NCBI GenBank assembly: GCA_902385655.1 | Contig: CABMGO010000006.1 | Location: 78,499-142,498, forward strand | Length of the DNA stretch: 64,000 nucleotides | Direction of reading: 5' to 3' | Origin: an uncultured archaeon | GTDB taxonomy: Archaea > Nanobdellota > Nanobdellia > Pacearchaeales > GW2011-AR1 | Position numbers and translations under genes: made by a program | Part shown: positions 5,526 through 58,412 of the stretch, piece after piece | Numbering within the stretch: position 1 is the first letter of the stretch | Layout: each line of letters opens with the position of its first letter | The notes under the pieces: generated by a model | Database searches by the model: none | What the model was told of the DNA's origin: nothing | What the model saw: only the letters and a program-made list of their open reading frames with translations

Positions 5526-6469
5526 CTTAATTCTAACACCTCTAATTTTTGTTTTACTTGATACTTGCTTGGTCTTAATGGCGTTGTCATTAAAATTGCT
5601 CTTTTCTTTGGACCATGAACAGATCCTTTTAACAATAAATAATCTGCTTTCAAAAATCCATAATGTTTGAATCCGTTCGGATTAACTTTCAATTCTTCTG
5701 CTTTTCCAGTTTTTAAAATTACACTGTTGTAAGCAACTCTTGAGAAGAAACCCATTTGACCTGCTTGTGGTGTAACGAATGTAACTCTTGCTGGATGCCA
5801 TGGGCCTAAAGAACCTGGTCTTCTCTGACCTTTTTCTGTTTTATCTACTTTTAAAGAAATTCCATGTCTTCTAACTGGTCCCATTAATCCTTTACCCTTT
5901 GTAACTGCTCTTATATCCAGTAATCCTTTAGGGAAAACTTCAGAAATGGAAATTGTCTTCCCAATTTTTTCTTTAACAAAATTCAACTTTTGGTCTTTTG
6001 TTCCACCGACAGCAATTTCAATCATATCTGGTGTTTTCTTCAATTCTGTTTTTTTAGCTTCAGTATAAACAATAACTCGAACATCATCGAAATCTGTAAC
6101 TTTTTGTAAATCTTCAACCTTAGAAATCTGTTTTGGAACTCTAACAACTCTCTTCAACTCTTTTTCATTAGCGAACACCATCTCTTTTGAAACAATGCCG
6201 TTTTTGTAAAATCTGACAGAAAAAATTTTCATCTCAGGACATTCCATAACTGTTGCAGGAATAATAATTTTTTTGCCTTTTGTCATAGAATCTGCAGTGT
6301 CATCTTTCGCATAAACAGAAACCATTCCTGCTTTATATCCAATAAAACCCATTAAACCCACCTCATTTTTTTTAATAGCATTCCAATTAACATTTGGAAT
6401 CAATCTTTCCGCTCTCTTTCTTGGCCAGTACTGTAAAGCGCTTGCCTTTGGTTTGTTAATTCTTCCCAT
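5522..6469 (-). CDS. rpl3: 50S ribosomal protein uL3 (first gene of the operon)
   Basis: 315 aa with FIGYKAGM, KGKGLMGPVRRHG and PWHPARV, uL3 motifs. Confidence 0.93.
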   Translation of the reverse strand: MGRINKPKASALQYWPRKRAERLIPNVNWNAIKKNEVGLMGFIGYKAGMVSVYAKDDTADSMTKGKKIIIPATVMECPEMKIFSVRFYKNGIVSKEMVFANEKELKRVVRVPKQISKVEDLQKVTDFDDVRVIVYTEAKKTELKKTPDMIEIAVGGTKDQKLNFVKEKIGKTISISEVFPKGLLDIRAVTKGKGLMGPVRRHGISLKVDKTEKGQRRPGSLGPWHPARVTFVTPQAGQMGFFSRVAYNSVILKTGKAEELKVNPNGFKHYGFLKADYLLLKGSVHGPKKRAILMTTPLRPSKYQVKQKLEVLELR

Positions 6470-10029: not shown

Positions 10030-11508
10030 ATGAGGCTAAAATCAAAAAATTTGAGGTGGATAGCTGGAAGACCAGTTGTAATTCTTACTGAAAAAGCAGC
10101 AAAAAAATTAAACGTTCATGTCGATGACAGAGTAAAAGTTTCTCTTAACAAAAAAAGTATTTATGCTGTTGTAGATCTATTTGAGGGAGTAGTAAGAGAT
10201 GCTGAAATAGGTCTCTCAAAAGAAATTTCTTCTTATCTAAGAACAAAAGGAAATGAAACTCTTGAAATCTCTACTGCTGAAATGTTTCTAGGGGCAAAAA
10301 TAATTAAGAAGAAACTAGACGGAGCTAGTCTAACAAAGGAAGAGATAGTAAAAGTTGTATCTGAAATTACTAATAATAATCTTACAGAAACTGAAATTGC
10401 ATATTTTGTTTCCGCAGAGAAGAATCAAGGTATGACTCTTCAAGAAACAATTTACCTAACTGAAGCAATGATAAATAGCGGGAAACATATTCATTTCAAA
10501 GATAAAATTGTTGCTGACAAACATTGTATTGGAGGTATAGCGGGGAATAGAACGACTCCAATCGTAGTTTCAATTTGTACTGCTGCAGGACTCAAGATGC
10601 CAAAATCCTCTTCAAGAGCAATTACTTCCGCCTCAGGAACCGCAGATGTAATGGAAACGATAGCAAACGTAGAACTTTCTACAGATAAAATAAAAAAAAT
10701 AGTAGACAAAACAAATGGTTGCTTAGTTTGGGGCGGTTCTCTAGGTCTTGCTCCTTCAGATGATAAGATAATTCAGGTAGAAAGAATCCTTAACCTCGAT
10801 GTAGAACCACAACTTCTTGCTTCGATAATTTCTAAGAAGATTTCAGCAGGTTCAAATAGAATTGTAGTTGATATTCCTTATGGCGGCGGTAAAATGAAAA
10901 CCAAGGGAGAAGCAAAAGCACTTGGAGACAAATTCGCAAAAATCGGAAAACATTTTAATGTAAAGTTTAAACCCGTTTACACTGATGGAACTCAACCAAT
11001 CGGAAATGGTTTCGGCCCAGTACTGGAAATGCAAGACGTGCTATCTGTCTTACGGAATGAGCCCGATTGTCCTCAAGATCTAAAGAAAAAATCGTTGTAC
11101 CTCGCTGCCGAAATAATGTCTCTTTGTGGAATATATTTTGCGGGAAGTAAAGCCAAAAAAATTTTGGAATCTGGAGAAGCTTACAAAAAATTTAAGGAAA
11201 TAGTAAATGCACAGAATGAATCAAAAGATTTTGATAAACGAGTGAAATCATTAAGTTTGGCTAAGGTACACTTTCACTACTATTCTCCAAAAAGCGGGAA
11301 GGTTGTAGAAATAAATAATCAGAAGATAAATTCTTTATGCAGAATCCTTGGTACTCCAGAAAACCCTCGAGCAGGTGTTTATCTTCATAGACATCTAGGT
11401 AAAGTAAAAGAAGGCGATGATCTTCTTACTCTTTATTCAGAAAGCGAAGAAAGATTAAAAGACGCAGAGAAATTTTTGTTAGAATATCAACCTATCAAGA
11501 TAGTTTAA
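10030..11508 (+). CDS. deoA: AMP phosphorylase / archaeal thymidine phosphorylase family
   Basis: 492 aa with the N-terminal archaeal extension (RPVVILTEKAAKKLNVHVDDRVKV) and a glycosyltransferase family 3 core (DKHCIGGIAGNRTTP, SSRAITSASGTAD). Confidence 0.8.
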   Translation: MRLKSKNLRWIAGRPVVILTEKAAKKLNVHVDDRVKVSLNKKSIYAVVDLFEGVVRDAEIGLSKEISSYLRTKGNETLEISTAEMFLGAKIIKKKLDGASLTKEEIVKVVSEITNNNLTETEIAYFVSAEKNQGMTLQETIYLTEAMINSGKHIHFKDKIVADKHCIGGIAGNRTTPIVVSICTAAGLKMPKSSSRAITSASGTADVMETIANVELSTDKIKKIVDKTNGCLVWGGSLGLAPSDDKIIQVERILNLDVEPQLLASIISKKISAGSNRIVVDIPYGGGKMKTKGEAKALGDKFAKIGKHFNVKFKPVYTDGTQPIGNGFGPVLEMQDVLSVLRNEPDCPQDLKKKSLYLAAEIMSLCGIYFAGSKAKKILESGEAYKKFKEIVNAQNESKDFDKRVKSLSLAKVHFHYYSPKSGKVVEINNQKINSLCRILGTPENPRAGVYLHRHLGKVKEGDDLLTLYSESEERLKDAEKFLLEYQPIKIV

Positions 11509-12280
11509 TCAACTTGCTTGGTTTTAGTTTTGTCGATAAAGATATTTTTGTTTTCAAATCTTTTCTACTTTTTATAAAATCCTGATGCGTTTTCATGGCA
11601 AGCTCTTGTGTATTGTTATGCTCGCTTATATGTGACAAAACTACTTCTTTCAATTTTTTACTAGCATTTTCAGTTACTCCCGTTGCAGCTTGGTTATTTG
11701 AAAGATGCCCATCATTTCCTCCGACCCACTTTTTCAAAAAGTAAGGATACGGCCCATTTTGTAGCATAACTGGATCATGGTTTGACTCAAGAAAAAGGAC
11801 ATTCGTCTCTGAAATTTCTCTTGCAACATTTTCACATATATGTCCTAAGTCAGTAATTATTGAAGCTTTTTCCTTACCATTTTTTTCTTTTAATGTAAAA
11901 CCTATTGGTTCGACTGCTTTATGGGATTTTAAAAAAGAACTTACTTCAATTCCGGAAATTACATTAGTTTCATTAGCACCAATTGTTTGAACTAATTCCT
12001 CCTTGTTACAAAGGAAACTTGTTTGAACTAGTTTCTTCGTCGCAAAAATTGGAATATTAAATTTTCTAGCAAAAACATATGCACCTTTTTTATGATCTGA
12101 ATGTTCGTGAGTGATAAAAATAGCATTTATTTTTGAAGGATCTTTACATACCAAATTCATTCTTTCCTCTATTTGTTTACAACTAATTCCTGCATCAATT
12201 AAAATGCCTTTATCTTTTTTACCAGCAAAATAACAATTCCCAGAACTTCCAGATGCCAAAGCACAAACCTCCATAATCAA
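11495..12280 (-). CDS. MBL-fold metallo-hydrolase
   Basis: SGSSGNC..ILIDAG..ITHEHSDH metal-binding motif. Confidence 0.75.
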   Translation of the reverse strand: MIMEVCALASGSSGNCYFAGKKDKGILIDAGISCKQIEERMNLVCKDPSKINAIFITHEHSDHKKGAYVFARKFNIPIFATKKLVQTSFLCNKEELVQTIGANETNVISGIEVSSFLKSHKAVEPIGFTLKEKNGKEKASIITDLGHICENVAREISETNVLFLESNHDPVMLQNGPYPYFLKKWVGGNDGHLSNNQAATGVTENASKKLKEVVLSHISEHNNTQELAMKTHQDFIKSRKDLKTKISLSTKLKPSKLIKLS

Positions 12281-13185: not shown

Positions 13186-14475
13186 ATGAAAACAAAATTT
13201 ATTGGTCCAATATTGATAGCTGCCTTATCAGTTTTAACTTTTTTAATTTGGTTTCTAGTCAGACAAGGTACTCCAATGTTCGCGGATTATTCAGTCGCAA
13301 CACATAGTCTAGGGCAGATAGCTGGCTTAATTGGCTTGACTTTATTCGCACTTACCTTTGTTTTTACAACAAGACTAAAAATTGTTGAAGACTCTTTCGG
13401 TGGTTTAGACAAAGTGTATCAAGTTCATCATTTACTAGGATCTCTTTCATTTATCTTAATTTTGTTTCACCCTCTTTTATTAGTCATCAAATTTATTCCT
13501 TCTAACTGGCCACTTGCAGCAAAATATCTTTTACCTAGTTCAAGTGTGGCAGTAAACCTTGGAATAACTGCTCTTTTAGCGATGATAATTTTAATTGCAT
13601 TAACAATTTACATTAATTTAAAATATGAAACTTGGAAAGGTTCTCACAGACTTTTCGGATTTGTTTTTATCATCGCATTTTTCCACAGTTTTATGATAAC
13701 CAGTGATATCTCTCGTTACAATCTTCTAAAGTTCTATATGTTGTTTATTTGTGCCTTAGGAATAATTTCTTTTGTCTATGGTTCATTTATTAGACCAAAG
13801 ATAAAAGATTATCCATATAAACTAAAGGACATTAAATCAAGAGGCAATGTAACTATTTTAGAACTAGAACCTATAAACGAAAAGATAGCTTTCAAACCAG
13901 GACAATTTGTGTTCCTTAAAACAAATCCTAAAGAGCAACATCCTTTCACAATTGCATCTTCTCCAGAAGAGAATAATATTGTTCTCATGATAAAATCTTT
14001 AGGAGATTATACTTCTAAGATCAAAGAATTAAAGAAAGGTACTCTAGTTTCGATTGAAGGTCCATATGGAAAAATGTGGGAAGAACTTTCTTCTTCACAA
14101 AAACCTCAAGTTTGGATTGCAGGAGGAATTGGAATAACTCCTTTCTCAAGTTTTGTTTCCCATATAGCAAAAACAAAATCTCTTAAACAAAAAATAGACT
14201 TGTTTTATTGTACTAGTAATAACGGCGAAGCATTCTTATTAGAAACTTTGCTTGAACAAGCTAAGGCGATTCCTAACTTAAGAATACATGATTTTTGTTC
14301 AGCAGACAAGGGAAGAATAGATCTACAAAAAATAGAATCTGTCGTCGGAAAGATAGAAGGAAAGAAATTTGTTCTATGCGGTCCTTTGCCAATGATGGAA
14401 TCAATTTCAAAACAACTAAAACAAAAAGGGTTTTCTAAAAATGACATCCTTTACGAAAATTTTAACTTAAAATGA
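13186..14475 (+). CDS. ferric-reductase-like transmembrane flavocytochrome (NOX/FRE-type, TM domain + FAD + NAD(P) domains)
   Basis: Six TM helices with conserved His pairs, then HPFTIASSP (FAD site) and GGIGITPF (NAD(P) site). Confidence 0.75.
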   Translation: MKTKFIGPILIAALSVLTFLIWFLVRQGTPMFADYSVATHSLGQIAGLIGLTLFALTFVFTTRLKIVEDSFGGLDKVYQVHHLLGSLSFILILFHPLLLVIKFIPSNWPLAAKYLLPSSSVAVNLGITALLAMIILIALTIYINLKYETWKGSHRLFGFVFIIAFFHSFMITSDISRYNLLKFYMLFICALGIISFVYGSFIRPKIKDYPYKLKDIKSRGNVTILELEPINEKIAFKPGQFVFLKTNPKEQHPFTIASSPEENNIVLMIKSLGDYTSKIKELKKGTLVSIEGPYGKMWEELSSSQKPQVWIAGGIGITPFSSFVSHIAKTKSLKQKIDLFYCTSNNGEAFLLETLLEQAKAIPNLRIHDFCSADKGRIDLQKIESVVGKIEGKKFVLCGPLPMMESISKQLKQKGFSKNDILYENFNLK

Positions 14476-14717
14476 AAATAAAAACATTCACAACCGTAGC
14501 TCTTTTAATTTTCTTATTAGTTTCTGCAGCAATAATTTACTTCGGTTTATTCAAAACGCCCTTGCAATCTTCAAACATTCAAGATAACTTGAGTTTAATA
14601 AAAAAAGATGAACAGAATTTAACAGTTACTCCGATTGTCGACCAACAGCCAACTACGACACCAACTCAAACTTCTACACCAGTAATTCGACCTCCAGTTA
14701 GAACAAGCGCATCATGA
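14472..14717 (+). CDS. small membrane-anchored Thr/Pro-rich protein
   Basis: 81-aa ORF with an N-terminal TM helix, overlapping the stop of the upstream reductase gene by 4 nt. Confidence 0.5.
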   Translation: MKIKTFTTVALLIFLLVSAAIIYFGLFKTPLQSSNIQDNLSLIKKDEQNLTVTPIVDQQPTTTPTQTSTPVIRPPVRTSAS

Positions 14718-14733: not shown

Positions 14734-14835
14734 ACGCCCGGATCCTGCTCACATTTTGCATTTCGCAAATAAATTTCTAAAAAACAGTTTTGCTCAAAGC
14801 GAAATGTTCAAATCGAACTGTTCGATTCTGAAGGA
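14734..14835 (-). repeat. tRNA-trailer cassette (family 1) downstream of tRNA-Ser, ending in a 12-nt re-copy of the tRNA 3' end
   Basis: ACGCCCGGATCC at 14835-14846 recurs at 14734-14745. Between the copies (tRNA sense): hairpin TTCAGAATCGA/TCGATTTGAA, then the core TTCGCTTTGAGCAAA..TTTGCGAAATGCAAAATGTGAGCAG. Confidence 0.85.
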
Positions 14836-14970
14836 CGCCCGGATCCAGAATCGAACTGGAAAAACCTTGCGGTAACCGGTTTGCTTGAGTTCTCGACGAA
14901 CGAGAGCATTGAAAATCGCCGAAGCGATTTACTGTTCAAGACCGGCGCAGTACCATTGTGCCATCCGGGC
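14836..14970 (-). tRNA. tRNA-Ser(UGA) with a 53-nt intron at the canonical 37/38 position (intron 14882-14934)
   Basis: Hand fold: acceptor GCCCGGA/TCCGGGC, 3-bp D stem, anticodon stem CCGGT/ACCGG, loop CTTGAA|A, long variable arm ACC-GCAA-GGT, T arm TCCAG-TTCGATT-CTGGA. The intron 3' end TCAAG pairs with CTTGA of the anticodon loop. Confidence 0.85.
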
Positions 14971-22973: not shown

Positions 22974-23702
22974 ATGGTAACAGTTCAAAAAAATGACTTT
23001 ATTGAATTAGAATTTACTGGAATTGTCAAAGACACTCAGGAAATTTTCGATACTACGAATAAGGACGAAGCAAAAAAAATTGGTATGCAGAACCCTGAAA
23101 AGGTAAAACCTGCAATGCTTTCGGTAGGTAATAGTATGACAGTAAAAGGGCTTGATGCTGACTTATCCGGAAAAGAAGTTGGAAAAGAATATTCTATCGA
23201 ACTAAAAGCAGAAGATGCATTTGGAAAGAGAAATCCTTCAATGGTCAAAATGATTCCATTAAAACTTTTCTTAGAGCAAAGAATTATGCCTGAGAAGGGA
23301 ATGCAACTTTCTCTTGATGGGATGGTTGTAAAAATTGTCTCTGTTTCAGGCGGAAGAGTTTTAGTAGATTTCAATAATCCTCTTTCGGGAAAAACAATTA
23401 TCTACAAATACAAAATCTCAAGAAAGCTTGAAGACCAAAAGGAAAAAATTAATGCACTTCAAGACTTTTTCTTCAGAAAAACTTTTGATTTCGAAGTCAA
23501 AGAAAAAGATTTAATCATGAAAGTTGATAAGAACATGCAGAAGTTTGTTGAGATGATGGCAAAGCCATTTGAAGAAATTCTCGGATTAAAAGTTAAGGTC
23601 GAAGTTTTCGCTTCGACACAAAGTTCAAAAGTCGGAGATGCAAAAGCTGAGCAAGAGATAGTCGAAAAGAAAGAAGAGAAAAAAGAAGAAGCGAAAAAAT
23701 AA
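22974..23702 (+). CDS. FKBP-type peptidyl-prolyl isomerase (long archaeal form)
   Basis: FIELEFTGIVKDTQEIFDTT start, an IF-flap-like insert, LVDFNNPLSGK, and a C-terminal helical domain. Confidence 0.75.
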   Translation: MVTVQKNDFIELEFTGIVKDTQEIFDTTNKDEAKKIGMQNPEKVKPAMLSVGNSMTVKGLDADLSGKEVGKEYSIELKAEDAFGKRNPSMVKMIPLKLFLEQRIMPEKGMQLSLDGMVVKIVSVSGGRVLVDFNNPLSGKTIIYKYKISRKLEDQKEKINALQDFFFRKTFDFEVKEKDLIMKVDKNMQKFVEMMAKPFEEILGLKVKVEVFASTQSSKVGDAKAEQEIVEKKEEKKEEAKK

Positions 23703-26674: not shown

Positions 26675-26745
26675 GGGGGTATGGGGTAGTGGTAGCCTAC
26701 GAGGTTTGGGACTTCGTGATCTCGGTTCGATCCCGAGTACCCCCA
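26675..26745 (+). tRNA. tRNA-Pro(UGG)
   Basis: Hand fold: acceptor GGGGGTA/TACCCCC, anticodon stem CGAGG/CTTCG, loop TTTGGGA, T arm CTCGG-TTCGATC-CCGAG, discriminator A. No encoded CCA. Confidence 0.9.
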
Positions 26746-26864
26746 TTTAGCCAAAAGAAGTCGGCGATCGAACACTCGATCCTGAGCAAAACGCTTCGAG
26801 CAGACAAACTGAAAAGTTTATAACTGCGAGATGTATTTTGTGAACAGAGTACCCCCATTTAGCC
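26746..26864 (+). repeat. tRNA-trailer cassette (family 1) downstream of tRNA-Pro, ending in an 18-nt re-copy of the tRNA 3' end
   Basis: GAGTACCCCCATTTAGCC at 26735-26752 recurs at 26847-26864. Internal hairpin GATCGA-ACAC-TCGATC, then the core ACGCTTCGAGCAG..CTGCGAGATGTATTTTGTGAACAG. Confidence 0.9.
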
Positions 26865-33080: not shown

Positions 33081-33133
33081 AAAAAAGAAAAAAGGGCAAA
33101 GTTCTATTTGTTATTTAAGCGGTGATAGAAAAT

Positions 33134-33200
33134 TTTTCGCTTTGAGCAAATTTACTTTTATTTTAATATTTGCGAAATGCAAAAAATTTTGAAGTTGCAG
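33134..33200 (+). repeat. family 1 core, solo copy (no tRNA attached)
   Basis: TTTTCGCTTTGAGCAAAT..ATTTGCGAAATGCAAAAAATTTTGAAGTTGCAG. Confidence 0.8.
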
Positions 33201-33269
33201 GTCTGCAACTGCGTTTTCTTAGTTACGTGGCTTTTTGCCCAGCTAGTAACTAAAAATCAAAGAAAAAGA

Positions 33270-33304
33270 TAAAAATAAAAAAAAGAAAAAAGGGCAAAAA
33301 GCCC
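33270..33304 (-). terminator. hairpin plus T-run downstream of the S-layer gene
   Basis: The minus strand reads GGGC-TTTTT-GCCC followed by TTTTTTCTTTTTTTT, 12 nt after the stop codon. Confidence 0.65.
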
Positions 33305-33315
33305 TAATTGTTTGT

Positions 33316-35604
33316 TTAAGCTGTGATAGCAGTTGCAGTTGTAGCAGATGTTACTTTCAACTTAGATCCAACAGTAGCATTTACGTTGTTATTAGACAAG
33401 TAAGTTATAGCCTTTGTTGTATCTTCAGCATTGAAACCAGCGACAAGTAAAGCAGTTTTACCGCTTCTTGCGAAAGATTCAATTAAAGCTTCACCGGATT
33501 TGATTCCAGTAGCAGCTGTGAAAGCATCGCCACATAGAGCACCACCAAGTAATTCAGCAGCAACAGTATTTACGCAAGAACCGCCGATAACGACTAAATT
33601 CTTACCAGACGCAGAGGAAACCTCATTGTCATAAACTGTCATTACACCAACACTTGATGCTGATGTACCTGAAGTAACTGTAGCACCTGGAGCTGTTACG
33701 AATACATTTGCATATACTTCGCCTCCATGGTATGTTACTGTAGCAGAACCTTGAGCAGCACTAGGATCGTTTAAAACAACCTTAGTAGCTAACTTGCTAG
33801 AGACATAACCTTCGTAGTCATCTGAGTCTTGTATTCTTAATGTAGGAACACTTACTGCAGAAACATCTGTCTTATTTTCACTATCGATTGAGCTTACTTT
33901 TGTAGTAGCAGTGAAAGAACCGCCTTGAGCAATCTTTCCATCCTCGTTAGCTTCATTGAAGACAAGAGCGAAGTTGTCAGTGTCAACAATATCTGTTGTA
34001 GGTAATGTAATCTTCATACCCTTTGGAGTATATACTGTACTGAAGTTTGTTTTTGTGGAGTCAGCAGTTAAGTTTACCCATCTGTTTGTAGATGTAGCAT
34101 TAACGTCTGATACTGTTAAAACAGTATTTCCAACTTTACAAGTTCTTCCAGCAATTACATCTGTACAAATGTCATTTCCTGTAATTTCATTTGTGATAGT
34201 TACAGAATCAGCATCATTTGAATCAAATCCTGTTGTTGCAGAAAGTAAATAAGTTTCAGCCTCGGAACTTGAGTTCCAAGAAACTACAAACCATTTATTC
34301 TTTGCACTTTCATTGTAAACTAAGTTTGTATCTGTAGAAGTTACTAATACATTATTAGCATCCTTTCCAAGACCCAAAATAGTTCCATTGGATTGATTTA
34401 TGTAGTATAAGTCAAGACTCATAGCACCATCTTTTATTGGAGCTTCAAGTTTGATCTTTTCTCTACCATCAACATTTACTTTTGTTACTTCTTGAGCAGG
34501 CATTGTTATGTCTGCCATTTGAAGATTTACATTTCCAAATAAAGGAACAGTTAAGTTTCCTTGTTCTGGAGTAACGAAAGTATCTTTGTCAACTTTCCAT
34601 GTGAATCCGAATGAGTTCAGAGTAGTTCCAAGGTCAACATTTGCAACCAAGTTTCTCTCTGTATTCTTATCATTGGATTTTACATTTTGTCCGTCTCTAA
34701 GTTCTATTTTACCAGTACCAATACTAAATTCAACTTTGTTAGCGTCCTTTTCTCTAGTAGCTTTGATAACTTCCTTAACACCTATATAACCTCCATCAGA
34801 AAGTTTATATGTGTCTCCTTTTGCAAGGGCCTCAGTTGTTTCTCCGTTGATTACCAACTTAGCAACATCTTCGTTTGAAGAAGTGTATACACTACTTATA
34901 GAAACTTCGTAACTCTTACCACCTGCAGTTAATGTAACTGCACCTCCGTCTGCATCAGTTGCTGTTGCACTTGAAGCAGAATCTAGAAGCACGATTTTAT
35001 TAGCGTCATAGTCAAGGATATAATATGGTTTACCCATCATTGTAATTTCCTTGTCTTTGATTGTGCTATTATTTGGGGCAGTATTGAAACTTAAAGAATA
35101 TGTCATAACTTCATCTCCAGAATTCAAGAAGAATCCCAAAGCTGGTGTGTCTGACTTGTATCCATTATCGCTAAAGTGAGTAAAGTTTAAGTTATCACTT
35201 AAGTCAATAGTTTGTTGATAGTTATATTCTTTATTATCTTTTCCCTTGAAGACTTGATCTGCTAAAAGGTTTGTCAATTCATCTTTCGATAAAGCGATTC
35301 CCATAACAGTCGCAGCTCCTTGGTTTAAGTTGAATTTCTGAGAAGCTCTCTCTATTTTTACAGAATCTCCTCCTGTAACAGTAGCTGTTGTAGCAGCTGT
35401 AGCTGTAGCAGGTGCAAGATTTGCAGTTAAGTCTATTGCAGCTTTCAAATCACTTGAAGCAGCCTTTTGGCCAACAACAAGAGCAACGCCTCCGTCTGTA
35501 AAAGAAGAAGGTGTGAAACTAGCAGCAGCTGCAAAAGCAGCTGTAGAACCTAACATTAAAGCGCTTCCTAATACTGTAGCAACTTTTTTGTAATTAATTT
35601 TCAT
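33316..35604 (-). CDS. S-layer protein (Methanococcales-type N- and C-terminal S-layer domains)
   Basis: Signal peptide, N-terminal GGVALVVGQKAASSDLKAAIDL and C-terminal KNLVVIGGSCVNTVAAELLG..ALLVAGFNAEDTTKA. Strong GGAGGT sits 10 nt before the ATG. Long leader and strong terminator. Confidence 0.8.
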   Translation of the reverse strand: MKINYKKVATVLGSALMLGSTAAFAAAASFTPSSFTDGGVALVVGQKAASSDLKAAIDLTANLAPATATAATTATVTGGDSVKIERASQKFNLNQGAATVMGIALSKDELTNLLADQVFKGKDNKEYNYQQTIDLSDNLNFTHFSDNGYKSDTPALGFFLNSGDEVMTYSLSFNTAPNNSTIKDKEITMMGKPYYILDYDANKIVLLDSASSATATDADGGAVTLTAGGKSYEVSISSVYTSSNEDVAKLVINGETTEALAKGDTYKLSDGGYIGVKEVIKATREKDANKVEFSIGTGKIELRDGQNVKSNDKNTERNLVANVDLGTTLNSFGFTWKVDKDTFVTPEQGNLTVPLFGNVNLQMADITMPAQEVTKVNVDGREKIKLEAPIKDGAMSLDLYYINQSNGTILGLGKDANNVLVTSTDTNLVYNESAKNKWFVVSWNSSSEAETYLLSATTGFDSNDADSVTITNEITGNDICTDVIAGRTCKVGNTVLTVSDVNATSTNRWVNLTADSTKTNFSTVYTPKGMKITLPTTDIVDTDNFALVFNEANEDGKIAQGGSFTATTKVSSIDSENKTDVSAVSVPTLRIQDSDDYEGYVSSKLATKVVLNDPSAAQGSATVTYHGGEVYANVFVTAPGATVTSGTSASSVGVMTVYDNEVSSASGKNLVVIGGSCVNTVAAELLGGALCGDAFTAATGIKSGEALIESFARSGKTALLVAGFNAEDTTKAITYLSNNNVNATVGSKLKVTSATTATAITA

Positions 35605-42361: not shown

Positions 42362-43702
42362 ATGATAAAAATTCATACTGTCGGAGGTTATTCTGAAGTT
42401 GGTAAAAACATGACTGTCGTAGAATTCGATGAGGATGCTTTCATCTTTGATGAGGGTTTTTTTCTTCCAGCGATAGTAGAACTTCAAGAAAAAGACAGGG
42501 ATGAATTCACATATTCTGAGTCAAAACTGAAACAAATTAAAGCAATTCCAGAAGACTCTTCAATCGAGAGCATTCGTCACAAAGTTTGCGCCCAGTTTGT
42601 AGGCCATGCCCATCTCGATCATGTTGGAGCAATTCCGTATTTATCTGACAAGTACAATGCAACAATTTATGGCACCCCCTATACTTTAGCAGTTTTAGAT
42701 TCTTTACTAAGGGACAGCGATTTAAATTTAAGGAATAACATAAAAACAATTCATCCAAATACTTCTTTTTATGTTCAAGGTAAAAAGAAAAAATATCTTG
42801 TAGAATTTGTGAATATCACTCATTCTACTCCTCAAACAAGTTTAATTGTTTTGCATACAGAAAAAGGAGCCATCATTTATGCGAATGATTTCAAACTAGA
42901 CGATAATCCTGTCCTAGGTGCACGACCGAACTATGAAAAGTTAAAACAGATTGCAAAACAAGGAGTTTATGCAATAATCGTAGATTCTCTTTACTCGGGC
43001 GCAGACAGAAAAACCCCTTCAGAAAAAATTGCAAGAAATCTTTTAGAAGAAGTTATGTTTAGTGTTGACAAGAAAGATTCTGGGATGATAATTACTACTT
43101 TCTCCTCTCACATTGCTCGTCTGAAAAGCATCGTAGAGTTTGGAGAGAGATTAAACAAGCAGCTTGTCTTTCTAGGGAGAAGTTTAAACAAATATTCTTT
43201 CGCTGCTAAAGATGTAGACATTGCTCCCTTCTTGAAGAATATTCATTTTGCAACCTATCGTAGACAAGTAGAGAAGGCATTGCAAAAAGTAGATCGAAGA
43301 AAACAAGATTATATCTTAGTTTGTACTGGACATCAAGGAGAGCCAGGAAGTATTTTAGAAAGAATTTCTCGAGGGAATTTACCTCTTAAATTAAATCACC
43401 AGTATAACATTCTTTTTTCTTCCAGCGTAATTCCTACGGAGGTTAATAAGAAAAATTTTGAAGAAATGGAAACAAAATTGAAAAAGAAAAATGCACGAAT
43501 TTTCAGAGACCTACATGTCTCGGGCCATGGTGGAAAAGAAGACTTGCGAGAACTCCTCCAAATTTTAAACCCCCAACATATTATTCCTTCACATGGAGGA
43601 TTTGATAAAACTGGTCCAATGAGAGATCTTGCAGTTTCTATGGGGTGGAAAGAAAATAAACAAGTTCATCTTATGTCTGACGGAGATGTGCTCGAACTAT
43701 GA
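42362..43702 (+). CDS. rnj: archaeal RNase J (beta-CASP metallo-beta-lactamase ribonuclease)
   Basis: GGYSEVGKNM, HAHLDHVGAIPYL, and beta-CASP motifs through to HVSGHG. Confidence 0.85.
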   Translation: MIKIHTVGGYSEVGKNMTVVEFDEDAFIFDEGFFLPAIVELQEKDRDEFTYSESKLKQIKAIPEDSSIESIRHKVCAQFVGHAHLDHVGAIPYLSDKYNATIYGTPYTLAVLDSLLRDSDLNLRNNIKTIHPNTSFYVQGKKKKYLVEFVNITHSTPQTSLIVLHTEKGAIIYANDFKLDDNPVLGARPNYEKLKQIAKQGVYAIIVDSLYSGADRKTPSEKIARNLLEEVMFSVDKKDSGMIITTFSSHIARLKSIVEFGERLNKQLVFLGRSLNKYSFAAKDVDIAPFLKNIHFATYRRQVEKALQKVDRRKQDYILVCTGHQGEPGSILERISRGNLPLKLNHQYNILFSSSVIPTEVNKKNFEEMETKLKKKNARIFRDLHVSGHGGKEDLRELLQILNPQHIIPSHGGFDKTGPMRDLAVSMGWKENKQVHLMSDGDVLEL

Positions 43703-46021: not shown

Positions 46022-47463
<1,442 letters not shown>

Positions 47464-47530: not shown

Positions 47531-47610
47531 TTGTATATTTATTTCGTCGATGAAGAAATATCATCGATTAAAAATTCCTGTGCAAGAGGAAGACTCGGCA
47601 CAGAAAAACT

Positions 47611-47681
47611 GGGCCTGTAGTCTAGTAGTAAAATACCTCCCTTGCACGGAGGGGTCTCGGGTGCGATTCCCGACAGGTCCA
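47611..47681 (+). tRNA. tRNA-Ala(UGC) in the 16S-23S spacer
   Basis: Acceptor GGGCCTG/CAGGTCC with G3:U70, anticodon stem CCTCC/GGAGG, loop CTTGCAC, and T arm CTCGG-GTGCGATT-CCCGA region. The D arm is AT-rich and weak. Confidence 0.85.
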
Positions 47682-47797
47682 TTTTGCTACGTCGGGAGAG
47701 CACATGCGATTCCGAAAAATTCGCTTCGAGCAAAAACAAAAGTAAAACAAAATTTACTTTTTTGCGAGATGCAAATTTTGAGCAGACAGGTCCATTT
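47682..47797 (+). repeat. tRNA-trailer cassette (family 1) downstream of tRNA-Ala, ending in a 13-nt re-copy of the tRNA 3' end
   Basis: GACAGGTCCATTT at 47672-47684 recurs at 47785-47797. It has the T-arm-like hairpin TCGGGA..TTCCGA containing TGCGATTCC, then the core TTCGCTTCGAGCAAAAA..TTTTTTGCGAGATGCAAATTTTGAGCAG. Confidence 0.9.
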
Positions 47798-47839
47798 CCG
47801 ACGAGAAATGGAAAATCACAAATCACACTCACTAAAAAA

Positions 47840-47918
47840 ATTTCGCTTCGAGCGGAACAAGATAACTAAAAATTATCTTCCGCGAAATGCAAAATTTTTT
47901 CTAAAATGAGAGAGCAAG
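47840..47918 (+). repeat. family 1 core, solo copy in the ITS
   Basis: ATTTCGCTTCGAGCGGAAC..TCTTCCGCGAAATGCAAAATTTTTTC, followed by the hairpin AGAGCA-AGAAA-TGCTCT. Confidence 0.8.
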
Positions 47919-48093: not shown

Positions 48094-48184
48094 TTTATAA
48101 GAAATTATCGTTTCCCACACATATAGTGTGTGGAGGAAGAAGAAAGAAGATTAAGATCTGTTTTATTTTTATAATAAAACAACT

Positions 48185-50985
<2,801 letters not shown>

Positions 50986-51001
50986 TTAAACTTCAATCTT
51001 C

Positions 51002-51266: not shown

Positions 51267-51620
51267 ATGAACGAATTTGGACAAGACGGAGAAGATTCTG
51301 GTCGATCTCAAGGCGGATTCCGAAGAAGTGGCGGCTTCAATAGAGGCGGTTCACGAGGCGGTTTTGGCGGCGGTAGAGGCGGCGGATTTAGACGTGGTGG
51401 TGGATTCAACCGTGGCGGTTTTGGCGGCGGTAGAGGCGGAGGCTTCAATAGGGGCGGCGGCAATTTCAGAAGAAGGTTCAATGATGGACCTCGAGAAATG
51501 CATCCAGCAAAATGTTCTGAATGTGGTAAGGACTGTGAAGTTCCTTTCAAACCAACAGAAGGAAAACCAGTTTATTGCAAAGAGTGTTTTACAAAGAGAA
51601 GACAAACTGAAATACAATAA
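51267..51620 (+). CDS. RGG/FGG-repeat protein with a C-terminal CxxC-x17-CxxC zinc ribbon
   Basis: GGFRRSGGFNRGGSRGGFGGGRGGGFRRGGGFNRGG repeats, then CSECGKDCEVPFKPTEGKPVYCKEC. Other frames across the repeat are artefacts. Confidence 0.75.
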   Translation: MNEFGQDGEDSGRSQGGFRRSGGFNRGGSRGGFGGGRGGGFRRGGGFNRGGFGGGRGGGFNRGGGNFRRRFNDGPREMHPAKCSECGKDCEVPFKPTEGKPVYCKECFTKRRQTEIQ

Positions 51621-52448: not shown

Positions 52449-52547
52449 ATAAAAATAGAGAAGAAACACGACTTAAAAATGTTTTGTTTTTGGAATTTTT
52501 TCAGCAAAACCAAGAGTTTAAAAATGATTTTTATATAAGATTTTTAT

Positions 52548-52619
52548 GGGTTCGTAGCTCATTGGGAGAGCGTCCGACTGAAGCTCGGTAGGTAGGGAGT
52601 TCGATTCTCCCCGAGCCCA
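52548..52619 (+). tRNA. tRNA-Phe(GAA)
   Basis: Acceptor GGGTTCG/CGAGCCC, D arm GCTC-ATTGGGA-GAGC, anticodon loop CTGAAGC, and T arm GGGAG-TTCGATT-CTCCC. The TATA box GTTTAAAAATG lies about 25 nt upstream. Confidence 0.9.
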
Positions 52620-52734
52620 TTTTCTTGAATCGAACGACCGTAGTAGGGAGCGAAAATTTTACACCGAGAAATTCTTATTTCATTTATTTAATTTAGAGAT
52701 GTGAAATTTGAGTAGATTCTCCCCGAGCCCATTT
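52620..52734 (+). repeat. tRNA-trailer cassette (family 1, divergent) downstream of tRNA-Phe, ending in a 20-nt re-copy of the tRNA 3' end
   Basis: GATTCTCCCCGAGCCCATTT at 52603-52622 recurs at 52715-52734. GAATCGAAC (52627-52635) is antisense to the T loop GTTCGATTC. Core: CACCGAGAAATT..AATTTAGAGATGTGAAATTTGAGTAG. Confidence 0.85.
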
Positions 52735-57709: not shown

Positions 57710-57749
57710 ATTTTATCGAGGAAAAACAACTTTATAAACTCTTTTCATC

Positions 57750-58412
57750 TTGAAAGTACATGACGAGCAATTCGCTTTGAAGAACAAAATGGAAGAAAAA
57801 AATAAATCTGAAATGCAAATTGCGAGAGAATTTGTATATTACTCTCAAAATGCAGTAACCTCTGGAAATATGATCAAAGACGATCTTATGAAAGCTGGAA
57901 GAATGGACATTGCTATAAATGTTTTAATTTCTGCATTTTTTCTTTCGCATGATGTAAGGAAGGATGTAAAATTGCACTTAATTTTTGAAGGACCTCCAAC
58001 CCCTCCTGTTCACATTTTGATTGAGTATGATGAAGACCTTGCGATTTCGAAAAAAGACGTTGCAGGGTTAATAAAAAGAATTTTGTATAAATGTCCTTCT
58101 GAAAAAGGCAAAACTGTTAAAGCTTTTCCCGGATGTTTTGTAGAAAAAAAATCTTTCGAAGCATTAGTGGATGAATTAGACAAGTCTGGAAAAAATGTTT
58201 TTCTTCTAGATAAGAAAGGAACAGACATCCGAGATCTAAAATTGAATGGAAATGAAGTTTTTGTGCTAGGTGACCAAGATGGTTTTCCCGACAGCAAGAG
58301 GCATCTTTTAAAAAGAATAGACAAAATTACCGTTTCACCTAAAATGCTTTTTGCTTCCCAAGTTTTAACAATAGTACATAATGAAATCGATAGAAAAGAG
58401 ATTTCGCAATAA
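57750..58412 (+). CDS. trmY: tRNA (pseudouridine54-N1)-methyltransferase TrmY (SPOUT, DUF358)
   Basis: REFVYYSQNAVTSG..GRMDIAINVLISAFFLSHDVRKD resembles archaeal TrmY. The true start is probably an internal Met. Confidence 0.65.
   Translation: MKVHDEQFALKNKMEEKNKSEMQIAREFVYYSQNAVTSGNMIKDDLMKAGRMDIAINVLISAFFLSHDVRKDVKLHLIFEGPPTPPVHILIEYDEDLAISKKDVAGLIKRILYKCPSEKGKTVKAFPGCFVEKKSFEALVDELDKSGKNVFLLDKKGTDIRDLKLNGNEVFVLGDQDGFPDSKRHLLKRIDKITVSPKMLFASQVLTIVHNEIDRKEISQ

Follow-up and report, generated by a model that had tools for sequence, protein, structure and literature searches.

The tRNA-Ser locus and its cassette

Why should part of the 3′ end of a tRNA gene be repeated exactly behind that gene, beyond 89 non-coding nucleotides? 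The question is raised by the tRNA-Ser(UGA) gene (14970-14836, minus strand) in a 64,000-nucleotide (nt) stretch of archaeal DNA from contig CABMGO010000006.1. This whole stretch is called the window here, and positions refer to it. An earlier note on the same DNA had described two features at this gene: an intron in the anticodon loop, and a ‘trailer cassette’ in which the 3′ end of the tRNA returns. The cassette is real, and every item listed for it was found in place. We tentatively read it as a palindromic repeat element acting at the DNA level and targeting T-loop-like YGA sites, one member of a family in DPANN archaea (Pacearchaeota, Woesearchaeota, and Nanoarchaeota).

In the direction of the tRNA, the cassette consists of a first hairpin, in which the T-arm is present once inverted and once direct, followed by a core hairpin of about 65 nt and an exact 12-nt re-copy, all on the minus strand. 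The repeated 12-mer GGATCCGGGCGT first appears at 14846-14835 (copy 1), where it covers the end of the T-stem, the 3′ strand of the acceptor, the discriminator, and one further nucleotide. It returns at 14745-14734 (copy 2, the re-copy), where its first G is shared with the terminal GAGCAG of the core. The 12-mer is found exactly twice in the 64 kb, with a chance expectation of 0.02. The first hairpin (14832-14807) is a palindrome centred on A14819, with one unpaired base. Its left arm, TTCAGAATCGAAC (14832-14820), is the antisense of T-arm positions 53-65, and its right arm, GTTCGATTTGAA (14818-14807), repeats the T-loop and the 3′ strand of the T-stem in sense, with one base deleted and one changed. 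Both the exact repeat and the near-perfect palindrome with its antisense and sense arms had been pointed out in the earlier note and are confirmed. The right arm also contributes the outer GA of the core hairpin (14811-14743), which is recognized by our covariance model R1 with 74.1 bits (E = 1.4e-20) and is further supported by covariation and invariant mismatches.

Chance and assembly artefact were rejected as explanations on the basis of shuffles, an independent contig, and recurrence in many metagenome-assembled genomes (MAGs). The independent assembly (ENA contig L072) is identical to the window from 15048 to 14811 and stops inside the palindrome, as assemblies break at repeats.

Copy 2 is followed by a T-rich run, GTTTTCTTTTTTCT (14734-14721, minus strand), which on its sequence is likely an archaeal oligo-T terminator for the tRNA-Ser locus. 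A convergent open reading frame (ORF; 14472-14717, plus strand) has its stop codon 16 nt from the re-copy. The earlier note was right that a T-run follows only the second copy here and that the stop codon lies at this distance, and it had suggested from the T-run that transcription may read through the cassette. This last step does not generalize. For the 22 tRNAs that have a re-copy, the mean length of the longest T-run is 2.6 behind copy 1 and 2.9 behind copy 2, so the stronger run behind copy 2 is peculiar to tRNA-Ser and no general feature of the family. A read-through or terminator design was rejected for the same reason.

A structured core with covarying stems

The recurring unit is a hairpin of about 65 nt with covarying stems and fixed non-Watson-Crick positions. 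It opens with GA and continues with a 9-bp stem carrying a C.A mismatch, followed by a U.U mismatch, two base pairs, a tandem G.A/A.G, and an inner stem-loop, and it ends with GA-GCAG. The consensus reads YGAGCA...GYGA, with GA dinucleotides 12 nt apart, and its strands pair mutually. In an alignment of 36 cores the hairpin is paired in 94.6% of cells, whereas shuffles reach 80.9% and slid controls do not exceed 54%. Changes on both sides were seen in 11 of its 16 pairs, with the columns of the search pattern unable to vary in this alignment and the outer and inner stems free to do so. The C.A, U.U, and inner G.A/A.G mismatches are invariant in 36 of 36 cores, a figure to be read with the fact that the scan pattern had fixed all of these columns except C.A column 63. 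The tandem G.A/A.G occurs twice per core: the inner one lies between regular pairs, and the outer one, at the base of the core and the junction with the first hairpin, is kept in 30-32 of the 36. As modeled, this outer motif may form a K-junction.

No family of Rfam 15 matches the cassette, the best permissive matches (E up to 10) reaching E = 0.9-3.6, far under the cut-offs. Several known structures were considered for the core and rejected. The boxes and spacing of a C/D box guide do not fit, and the complementarity of the core strands to rRNA is not beyond chance. For the inner tandem G.A, a standard kink-turn (K-turn) was discarded by hand, the 3-nt bulge being absent whichever strand is read. 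A hammerhead or another small ribozyme would call for other core nucleotides (e.g. a G stands at the A14 position), again with no Rfam match. The core-site motifs of an integron attC are absent, and a retroviral-type primer-binding site on the opposite strand lacks the complement of CCA.

Eight cores in five contexts

The build seen at tRNA-Ser recurs at the other three tRNAs of the window (Pro, Ala, and Phe), consisting each time of the tRNA, a T-arm-derived hairpin, the core, and an exact re-copy of the tRNA’s own 3′ end. On the plus strand, the tRNA-Pro build spans 26675-26864 (tRNA 26675-26745, core 26782-26849), with a 17-nt repeat, AGTACCCCCATTTAGCC, at 26736-26752 and 26848-26864. The tRNA-Ala build is located in the spacer between the 16S and 23S rRNA genes (47610-47797, plus strand; tRNA 47610-47682, core 47712-47787), where the 13-nt repeat GACAGGTCCATTT occupies 47672-47684 and 47785-47797. 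The tRNA-Phe build (52547-52734, plus strand) has its tRNA at 52547-52620 and a diverged core at 52650-52717, with a 20-nt repeat, GATTCTCCCCGAGCCCATTT, at 52603-52622 and 52715-52734.

With the covariance model we found eight cores in the 64 kb, four linked to these tRNAs and four elsewhere. They occur in five kinds of context: tRNA 3′ flanks, the rRNA spacer, intergenic DNA, the 5′ end of a gene, and a coding tail. The cassette as a recurrent unit, as the earlier note had it, is thus borne out by all four tRNAs of the window and by some 35 MAG loci of DPANN archaea; a tRNA-specific element it is not, with half of the window cores (four of eight) standing away from the 3′ side of a tRNA.

The four remaining cores are all on the plus strand. 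The core in the spacer upstream of the 23S rRNA gene (47838-47897; 39.6 bits; fold z = -4.2) has neither the outer GA nor a re-copy. The intergenic core (33132-33187; 50.1 bits) is likewise devoid of the outer GA. It is preceded by a C-box-like GGTGATAG and followed by a GC hairpin and a T-run (33090-33335, plus strand), and a second copy of the motif AAAAGGGCAAA..TTGTTT.TTTAAGC.GTGATAG is present about 190 nt downstream; the region 33090-33335 may represent an unannotated small RNA gene or a repeat. The third core (57763-57830), about 25 nt downstream of a TTTATAAA box, holds in its loop the ATG start codon of a gene for a TrmY-like methyltransferase (region 57731-58412). The encoded protein matches Pfam PF04013 with 158 bits and the NCBIfam model TrmY with 157.8 bits, under the cut-off of 183. 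TrmY is the N1-methyltransferase of T-loop pseudouridine 54. This core could exert translational control or could be merely another insertion. The fourth is a core-like hairpin (23599-23656; 36.8 bits) that lies in frame in the region coding for the C-terminal tail of an FKBP-type prolyl isomerase (ORF 22974-23702).

Relatives in other genomes

The core pattern matched 69 stretches in the genome collection. About 35 of these are loci in MAGs of Pacearchaeota, Woesearchaeota, and Nanoarchaeota, and the remaining matches are high-GC bacterial sequences with no other sign of the element. A further 42 matches in 34 MAG loci were obtained with the covariance model. Most archaeal matches have a tRNA before the core and a repeat of the tRNA 3′ end after it. 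The last 11 nt of the tRNA are found again downstream of the gene for 22 of 39 tRNAs and upstream of it for one of 39. Among the nine tRNAs that had not been used for finding loci, four show this recurrence. Re-copies behind tRNAs are common, not universal. Lack of conservation in related genomes, which would have told against the earlier note, was not seen, the family being conserved. At one locus (L048), a core (6183-6257) lies directly downstream of a coding-like stretch rich in Lys, Arg, and Gly.

Behind tRNA-Leu and tRNA-Ser genes, this slot is also filled by other variants of the hairpin. There are at least two more such variants behind tRNAs, each followed by a re-copy, at L023, L006, L021, L013, and L027 (upstream of R1 cores), at L042:5960-6035, and at L013:2372-2460. 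One of them reads GCGAACAATTTGCTCGAATTTTGC...GCAAAATTTCAGAGTGAATTGCGAGTAG, and the tRNA-Leu type reads CTTGCTTGTGAG...CAAGCAGCGAGGATTTTCAATCC. At L012:476-649 (plus strand), the 93-nt ‘intron’ that ARAGORN assigns to a tRNA-Ser contains the hairpin of a third core variant, GAACAATTAGGTCTTCGAC...TCGAAGACATAATTGTAAGTAG. Direct copies of the anticodon loop, TCTAGAAAA, lie on both sides of this insert, which also includes a diverged copy of the D-arm. The same third variant forms the 3′ cassette of tRNA-Ser(cga) at L045:1665-1865 (minus strand).

Orthologs of the tRNA-Ser locus were sought in metagenomes with the neighboring ferric-reductase-like protein, which led to two distant loci (33-34% identity), neither of them with a tRNA or a core. 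The 81-aa neighbor protein is not on record. The single match among viral contigs is GC-rich and due to chance. The element did not turn up in our literature searches, and the family appears to be new. Its kind, small structured genomic repeats, is known, and the link to the tRNA T-arm would be unusual and undescribed.

A second, partial tRNA copy interrupted by the core

What the re-copy represents becomes apparent from the two junctions of the core, which read alike in the four cassettes of the window (Ser, Pro, Ala, and Phe) and in their relatives. On its 5′ side, the core is bordered by T-arm sequence that extends as far as a YGA. On its 3′ side, the tRNA sequence is taken up again from that GA and runs via the acceptor strand and the discriminator into a few bases of the original trailer. 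Read across both junctions, the right arm and the re-copy therefore belong together as the parts of a single second copy of the tRNA 3′ region, which the core interrupts, and the left arm repeats the proximal half of this second copy in inverted form. The 12-nt re-copy of the earlier note stands as an exact copy but not as a complete unit, being only the distal part of the longer second copy. The insertion point is a GA in the T-arm, located in the T-loop in tRNA-Phe and at the end of the T-stem in tRNA-Ser, tRNA-Pro, and tRNA-Ala. YGA is present at the 5′ junction of nearly all copies, and its GA may be part of the element itself. The T-loop of copy 2 often misses the UU of GUUCGA and then reads GCGA or GUGA. 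The re-copy is not a simple target duplication.

Repeats of this kind call to mind the attachment sites of integrases. The two 12-mers would then be attL and attR, left by integration into the tRNA gene of an element that has since been mostly deleted. Indeed, a direct repeat of the tRNA 3′ part running a few bases past the gene is a classic footprint of an integrase (PMC9897764), and here, too, an exact copy of the tRNA 3′ part, extending slightly beyond the gene, stands some way behind an intact tRNA. However, the archaeal elements with such partial tRNA duplications are integrase-bearing inserts of 9-23 kb (PMC9897764), whereas merely 89 nt lie between the present repeats, the inserts of the family being about 90 nt long, non-coding, and found at most tRNAs. 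Our Pfam scan covered 59 ORFs of the window (mostly at E <= 1e-5), and no integrase was found among the nearby ORFs scanned. The second copy is, moreover, interrupted and preceded by an inverted piece, and its presence also upstream of the core, as the right arm, is not predicted by an attachment-site model. Four different tRNAs in 64 kb share this build with many tRNAs of many MAGs, the flanks being specific to each tRNA, and one integrase would not produce such a pattern. We consider this origin highly improbable.

The orientation of the core is informative as well. In L016 (tRNA-Trp) and L048 (tRNA-Ile) the core runs opposite to the tRNA, and a re-copy follows in both. The inverted core of L016 is located in the T-loop of the second T-arm copy, at a palindromic TTCGAA, and the core is found in either orientation where the T-loop DNA is palindromic (TTCGAA or TCGA). 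Since the tRNA 3′ end lies downstream even when the core is inverted, the re-copy follows the orientation of the tRNA and not that of the core. For this reason the insertion is best understood at the DNA level, and the inverted cores of the relatives argue for DNA-level insertion rather than for a designed tRNA trailer.

The orientation also bears on the notion that the core and the re-copy form a guide RNA, in which a scaffold carries a 3′ guide to the tRNA gene in the manner of a TnpB omega-RNA or of a tRNA-homing CRISPR transposon. A structured scaffold does directly precede 12-30 nt that are identical to a nearby ‘empty’ site with a fixed motif before it (T-loop TCGA), as such a system would have it. 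However, an inverted core has the tRNA-derived stretch 5′ of itself in its own sense, the re-copy is 8-30 nt long and often decayed, cores without any re-copy exist, and neither an RNA-guided nuclease nor a transposase is present among the scanned ORFs of the window. We give this idea next to no credence.

Signs of turnover were observed in the family. Cassettes stand in tandem in L012, L053, L057, L023, and L006, and in L049 and L045 a core is accompanied by orphan pieces of a tRNA 3′ end, an intact tRNA being absent. L065:490-900 (minus strand) contains two tandem tRNA-Pro units. The first is a tRNA-Pro-like gene in which the only T-arm is interrupted by the core, with a degenerate T-loop and a single copy of the 3′ end, and is probably a pseudogene. 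The second is intact and has its own cassette, with a re-copy differing at one base. About half of the re-copies are perfect (overall, 30 differences in 462 aligned positions), their length is erratic (8-30 nt), and others have decayed through substitutions and indels (6/24 in L020, 4/23 in L009, 4/18 in L023).

These loci also allow us to judge whether the cassette might be spliced out, or copy 2 used as an alternative 3′ half, with the splicing endonuclease cutting at both copies and joining them, as is the case for non-canonical introns and split tRNAs in Nanoarchaeota. Identical borders would allow seamless excision, and DPANN archaea are known for broad-specificity endonucleases (PMC5829648). 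In addition, the L012 hairpin sits at the intron position of a tRNA-Ser with a repeat of the anticodon loop on its flanks, and L065 has a tRNA-Pro-like gene whose only T-arm is interrupted. On the other hand, copy 1 completes a normal tRNA in every detected case, copy 2 has decayed in several lineages, indels included, and the interrupted copy of L065, with its degenerate T-loop, stands beside an intact tRNA-Pro. The borders of the cassette show no bulge-helix-bulge and no conserved closing helix either. A bulge-helix-bulge, including one with a GUUC/GAAC central helix, can be drawn for a few copies only and not for tRNA-Ser, L013, or L032; the folds of four cassettes give differing and weak closing pairs; and in most copies pairing is lacking between the GARY tail and the four nucleotides that precede the 5′ GA. 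Splicing of the cassette is thus very unlikely in our opinion.

DNA repeat or functional RNA

The repeat reading of the cassette is supported by the eight cores in 64 kb, their five contexts, and the 42 additional matches in 34 MAG loci. The covarying hairpin with its fixed mismatches, the interrupted second copy, the two orientations, the signs of turnover, and the other variants in the same slot count in its favor as well. Its DNA-level character is supported by the failure of the rationales at the RNA level, namely a closing helix, a logic of T-runs, and an rRNA target. The element would spread, or would once have spread, as DNA, with its hairpin probably read by a trans-acting enzyme and with selection keeping the upstream tRNA intact. 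The partial duplication and the inverted segment would be by-products of insertion and repair, plausibly through template switching at the T-arm hairpin. At the tRNA-Ser locus, transcription would continue from the tRNA through the cassette to the oligo-T (14734-14721). Cleavage behind G14836, at the 3′ end of the tRNA, would then remove the cassette, which would have no role in the making of tRNA-Ser.

Several observations weigh against this reading. No Pfam match to a transposase, an integrase, or a HUH or Y1 enzyme was found among the 59 ORFs scanned. Filled and empty sites in close relatives were not found, the metagenome matches being distant and non-syntenic, and none of the mechanisms that we considered accounts for the origin of the inverted left arm. 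The re-copies of the window are perfect (62 of 62 positions, by eye) while the right arms have changed, which hints at constraint or conversion acting on the re-copy. The wobble pairs are strand-asymmetric (23 G.U and 10 A.C on the given strand), 26 of 30 tRNA-linked cores are in tRNA sense and four inverted, and the primary sequence and tandem G.A of the core are kept across loci labeled as several candidate phyla. Taken together, this asymmetry, sense bias, and breadth of conservation fit selection on an RNA. Because no partner enzyme and no filled/empty polymorphism were found and several features fit such selection, we hold the DNA-level repeat reading at somewhat less than even confidence.

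The same features lead to the alternative that the core is a small structured, functional RNA, protein-binding and with two tandem G.A motifs, which is made from any transcript that contains it (tRNA trailers, rRNA spacer, mRNA ends). It would have a role in RNA processing, stability, or regulation, and the tRNA-derived flanks would merely record gene duplication. Besides the strand and sense biases, the strong covariation and the G.A/A.G, U.U, and C.A positions that are invariant across distant MAGs speak for it. The rRNA operon, a 5′ leader whose start codon falls in the loop, and a coding tail likewise contain the core in sense, and a TATA-like box is located about 25 nt upstream of the copy at 57763. 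This alternative is at odds with the inverted cores at tRNA-Trp, tRNA-Ile, and tRNA-Arg loci, which would be antisense in the tRNA transcript, and it leaves unexplained why the core is placed in a T-arm copy at YGA. In addition, the inner motif of the core is not a standard K-turn, and the core is not a C/D box RNA, has no complementary rRNA target that we could find, and matches no Rfam family. We regard a functional RNA as possible, though doubtful.

A bolder version, which we judge unlikely, takes the core as a new class of functional archaeal RNA whose tRNA-matched flanks are kept on purpose. It draws on the perfect re-copies of the window beside changed right arms, the sense bias, and the RNA-type mismatches conserved across phylum labels. 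Conceivably, it would be a cis module in which the antisense T-arm piece and the spare 3′ strand toggle the folding or maturation of the pre-tRNA. It is also conceivable that it would serve as a ribonucleoprotein handle that marks the precursors of stable RNAs in reduced genomes.

The tRNA-Ser intron

The tRNA-Ser(UGA) gene was identified with the Rfam tRNA model, with ARAGORN allowing introns, and from its cloverleaf fold and sequence. Default ARAGORN and Rfam gathering runs both miss it. With permissive filters admitting an insertion in the anticodon loop, it scores 40.6 bits with the Rfam tRNA model (cut-off 29). With introns allowed, ARAGORN finds the gene, misplaces the intron by two bases (35/36), and labels it Ala(tgc). 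The long variable arm, G73, and an intron at 37/38 indicate tRNA-Ser(UGA) instead of Ala(tgc), and the cloverleaf with long variable arm, UGA anticodon, and G73 is that of a class II archaeal tRNA-Ser. On the minus strand, exon 1 occupies 14970-14935, with the anticodon TGA at 14938-14936, and exon 2 occupies 14881-14836, with the T-arm at 14860-14844 and the discriminator at G14836. CCA is not encoded.

The intron (14934-14882, minus strand) is 53 nt long, is inserted at the canonical position 37/38, and contains two small internal hairpins. The pre-tRNA folds as a cloverleaf in which the splice sites lie in 3-nt bulges flanking a 5-bp CUUGA/UCAAG helix (z = -3.2). As modeled, the insert qualifies as an archaeal bulge-helix-bulge intron, with a predicted helix of 5 bp compared to the canonical 4. 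The canonical 53-nt anticodon-loop intron of the earlier note is upheld by this position and fold. The note had also concluded that intron and cassette are distinct features. This is the case in tRNA-Ser, where the two fold differently and the core model gives no match in the 53-nt intron. It does not hold throughout the clade, as L012 has the hairpin of a related variant at a tRNA-Ser intron position, so that intron and cassette are not always distinct. The element family may also create or occupy intron positions.

Comparison with known systems

Going by sequence and predicted structure, the element appears most like repetitive extragenic palindromic sequences (REP/REPIN), Rickettsia palindromic elements (RPE), or mitochondrial GC clusters, and the defining features of none of the systems compared were found in full. 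REP/REPIN, RPE, and GC clusters are short hairpins without coding capacity that occur in many copies between genes, in RNA genes, and in in-frame coding tails, with covarying stems and particular mismatches fixed. We know of none described in a duplicated tRNA 3′ segment at the T-loop. The present element resembles them in being a short hairpin found in many copies and varied contexts of a small AT-rich genome, and the FKBP-tail hairpin (23599-23656) recalls the Rickettsia elements inside genes. It differs in sequence and structure, which are unrelated, in having no partner enzyme among the scanned ORFs, and in a conservation that spans several candidate-phylum labels rather than a species or genus. 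The GC clusters of yeast mitochondria are described in PMC4478555.

A hairpin with fixed mismatches is also shared with REP and IS200-IS605-derived elements, and no Y1/HUH enzyme (TnpA/RAYT) was found among the 59 window ORFs scanned. Like a miniature inverted-repeat transposable element, the family has many copies and an imperfect palindrome; only GA is shared at the junctions, and the ‘duplication’ of 8-30 nt spans both sides. Archaeal C/D box small RNA (sRNA) genes occupy many contexts, and co-transcripts of tRNA and sRNA have been reported in Nanoarchaeum. The core resembles them in its tandem sheared G.A near the ends and in the middle and in its many contexts, behind tRNAs and inside transcripts, and it too could be released by tRNA 3′ processing. 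In contrast to C/D box sRNAs, the boxes RUGAUGA and CUGA are unmatched, the would-be guides are too short and paired with each other, and a search for targets in rRNA or tRNA came up empty. Transposed or non-canonical bulge-helix-bulge introns and split tRNAs are likewise short non-coding insertions that recur at several tRNAs, whereas the cassette lies outside a complete tRNA, has no bulge-helix-bulge at its borders, and also occurs away from tRNAs.

The surrounding window

The window is archaeal, with a G+C content of about 34% outside the rRNA genes. Rfam gathering runs identified an archaeal 16S rRNA (46022-47463; 1442 nt of the 1478-position model), a 23S rRNA (48176-50990; 2815 nt of the 2987-position model), and three intron-less tRNAs. 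Nowhere in the window did a 5S rRNA attain the gathering score, and hence none lies beside the rRNA operon. The Pfam matches among the scanned ORFs are of housekeeping type, including ribosomal proteins, FtsZ, the proteasome, cysteinyl-tRNA synthetase (CysRS), and tRNA-modification enzymes, and no RNA-guided nuclease is among them. A 261-aa protein with a metallo-beta-lactamase fold (11495-12280, minus strand) has RNase Z as its best NCBIfam match. With 32 bits compared to a cut-off of 293, it is not assignable as RNase Z. An RNase J-like beta-CASP protein is encoded at 42362-43702 (plus strand), and neither of these two proteins is assignable to tRNA 3′ processing. The gene for ribosomal protein L11 (25938-26642, plus strand) has a long repetitive C-terminal extension rich in Ala, Lys, and Glu (repeat family D1), and a treble-clef zinc-finger gene directly past the 23S rRNA (51267-51620, plus strand) carries RGG-type repeats (D2).

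Implications for DPANN archaea

The genomes of DPANN archaea are tiny, with each tRNA gene present once, and hardly any work has been done on RNA biology in these organisms. In such a genome, a structured element in most tRNA 3′ flanks, in the rRNA spacer, and in some mRNAs is a large unannotated feature. For annotation, the element accounts for assembly breaks, such as the end of contig L072 in the palindrome, and can mislead tRNA finders, as when ARAGORN takes tRNA-Ser for tRNA-Ala or the element-bearing insert of L012 for an intron. It could join the libraries of RNA families. If it is a functional RNA, it would be a new family with two tandem G.A motifs awaiting its protein partner. If it is mobile, it would be a repeat with the T-loop DNA of tRNA genes as its target, able to persist because an intact copy of the gene is left behind, and it would bear on the origin of archaeal tRNA introns, split tRNAs, and partial tRNA genes.

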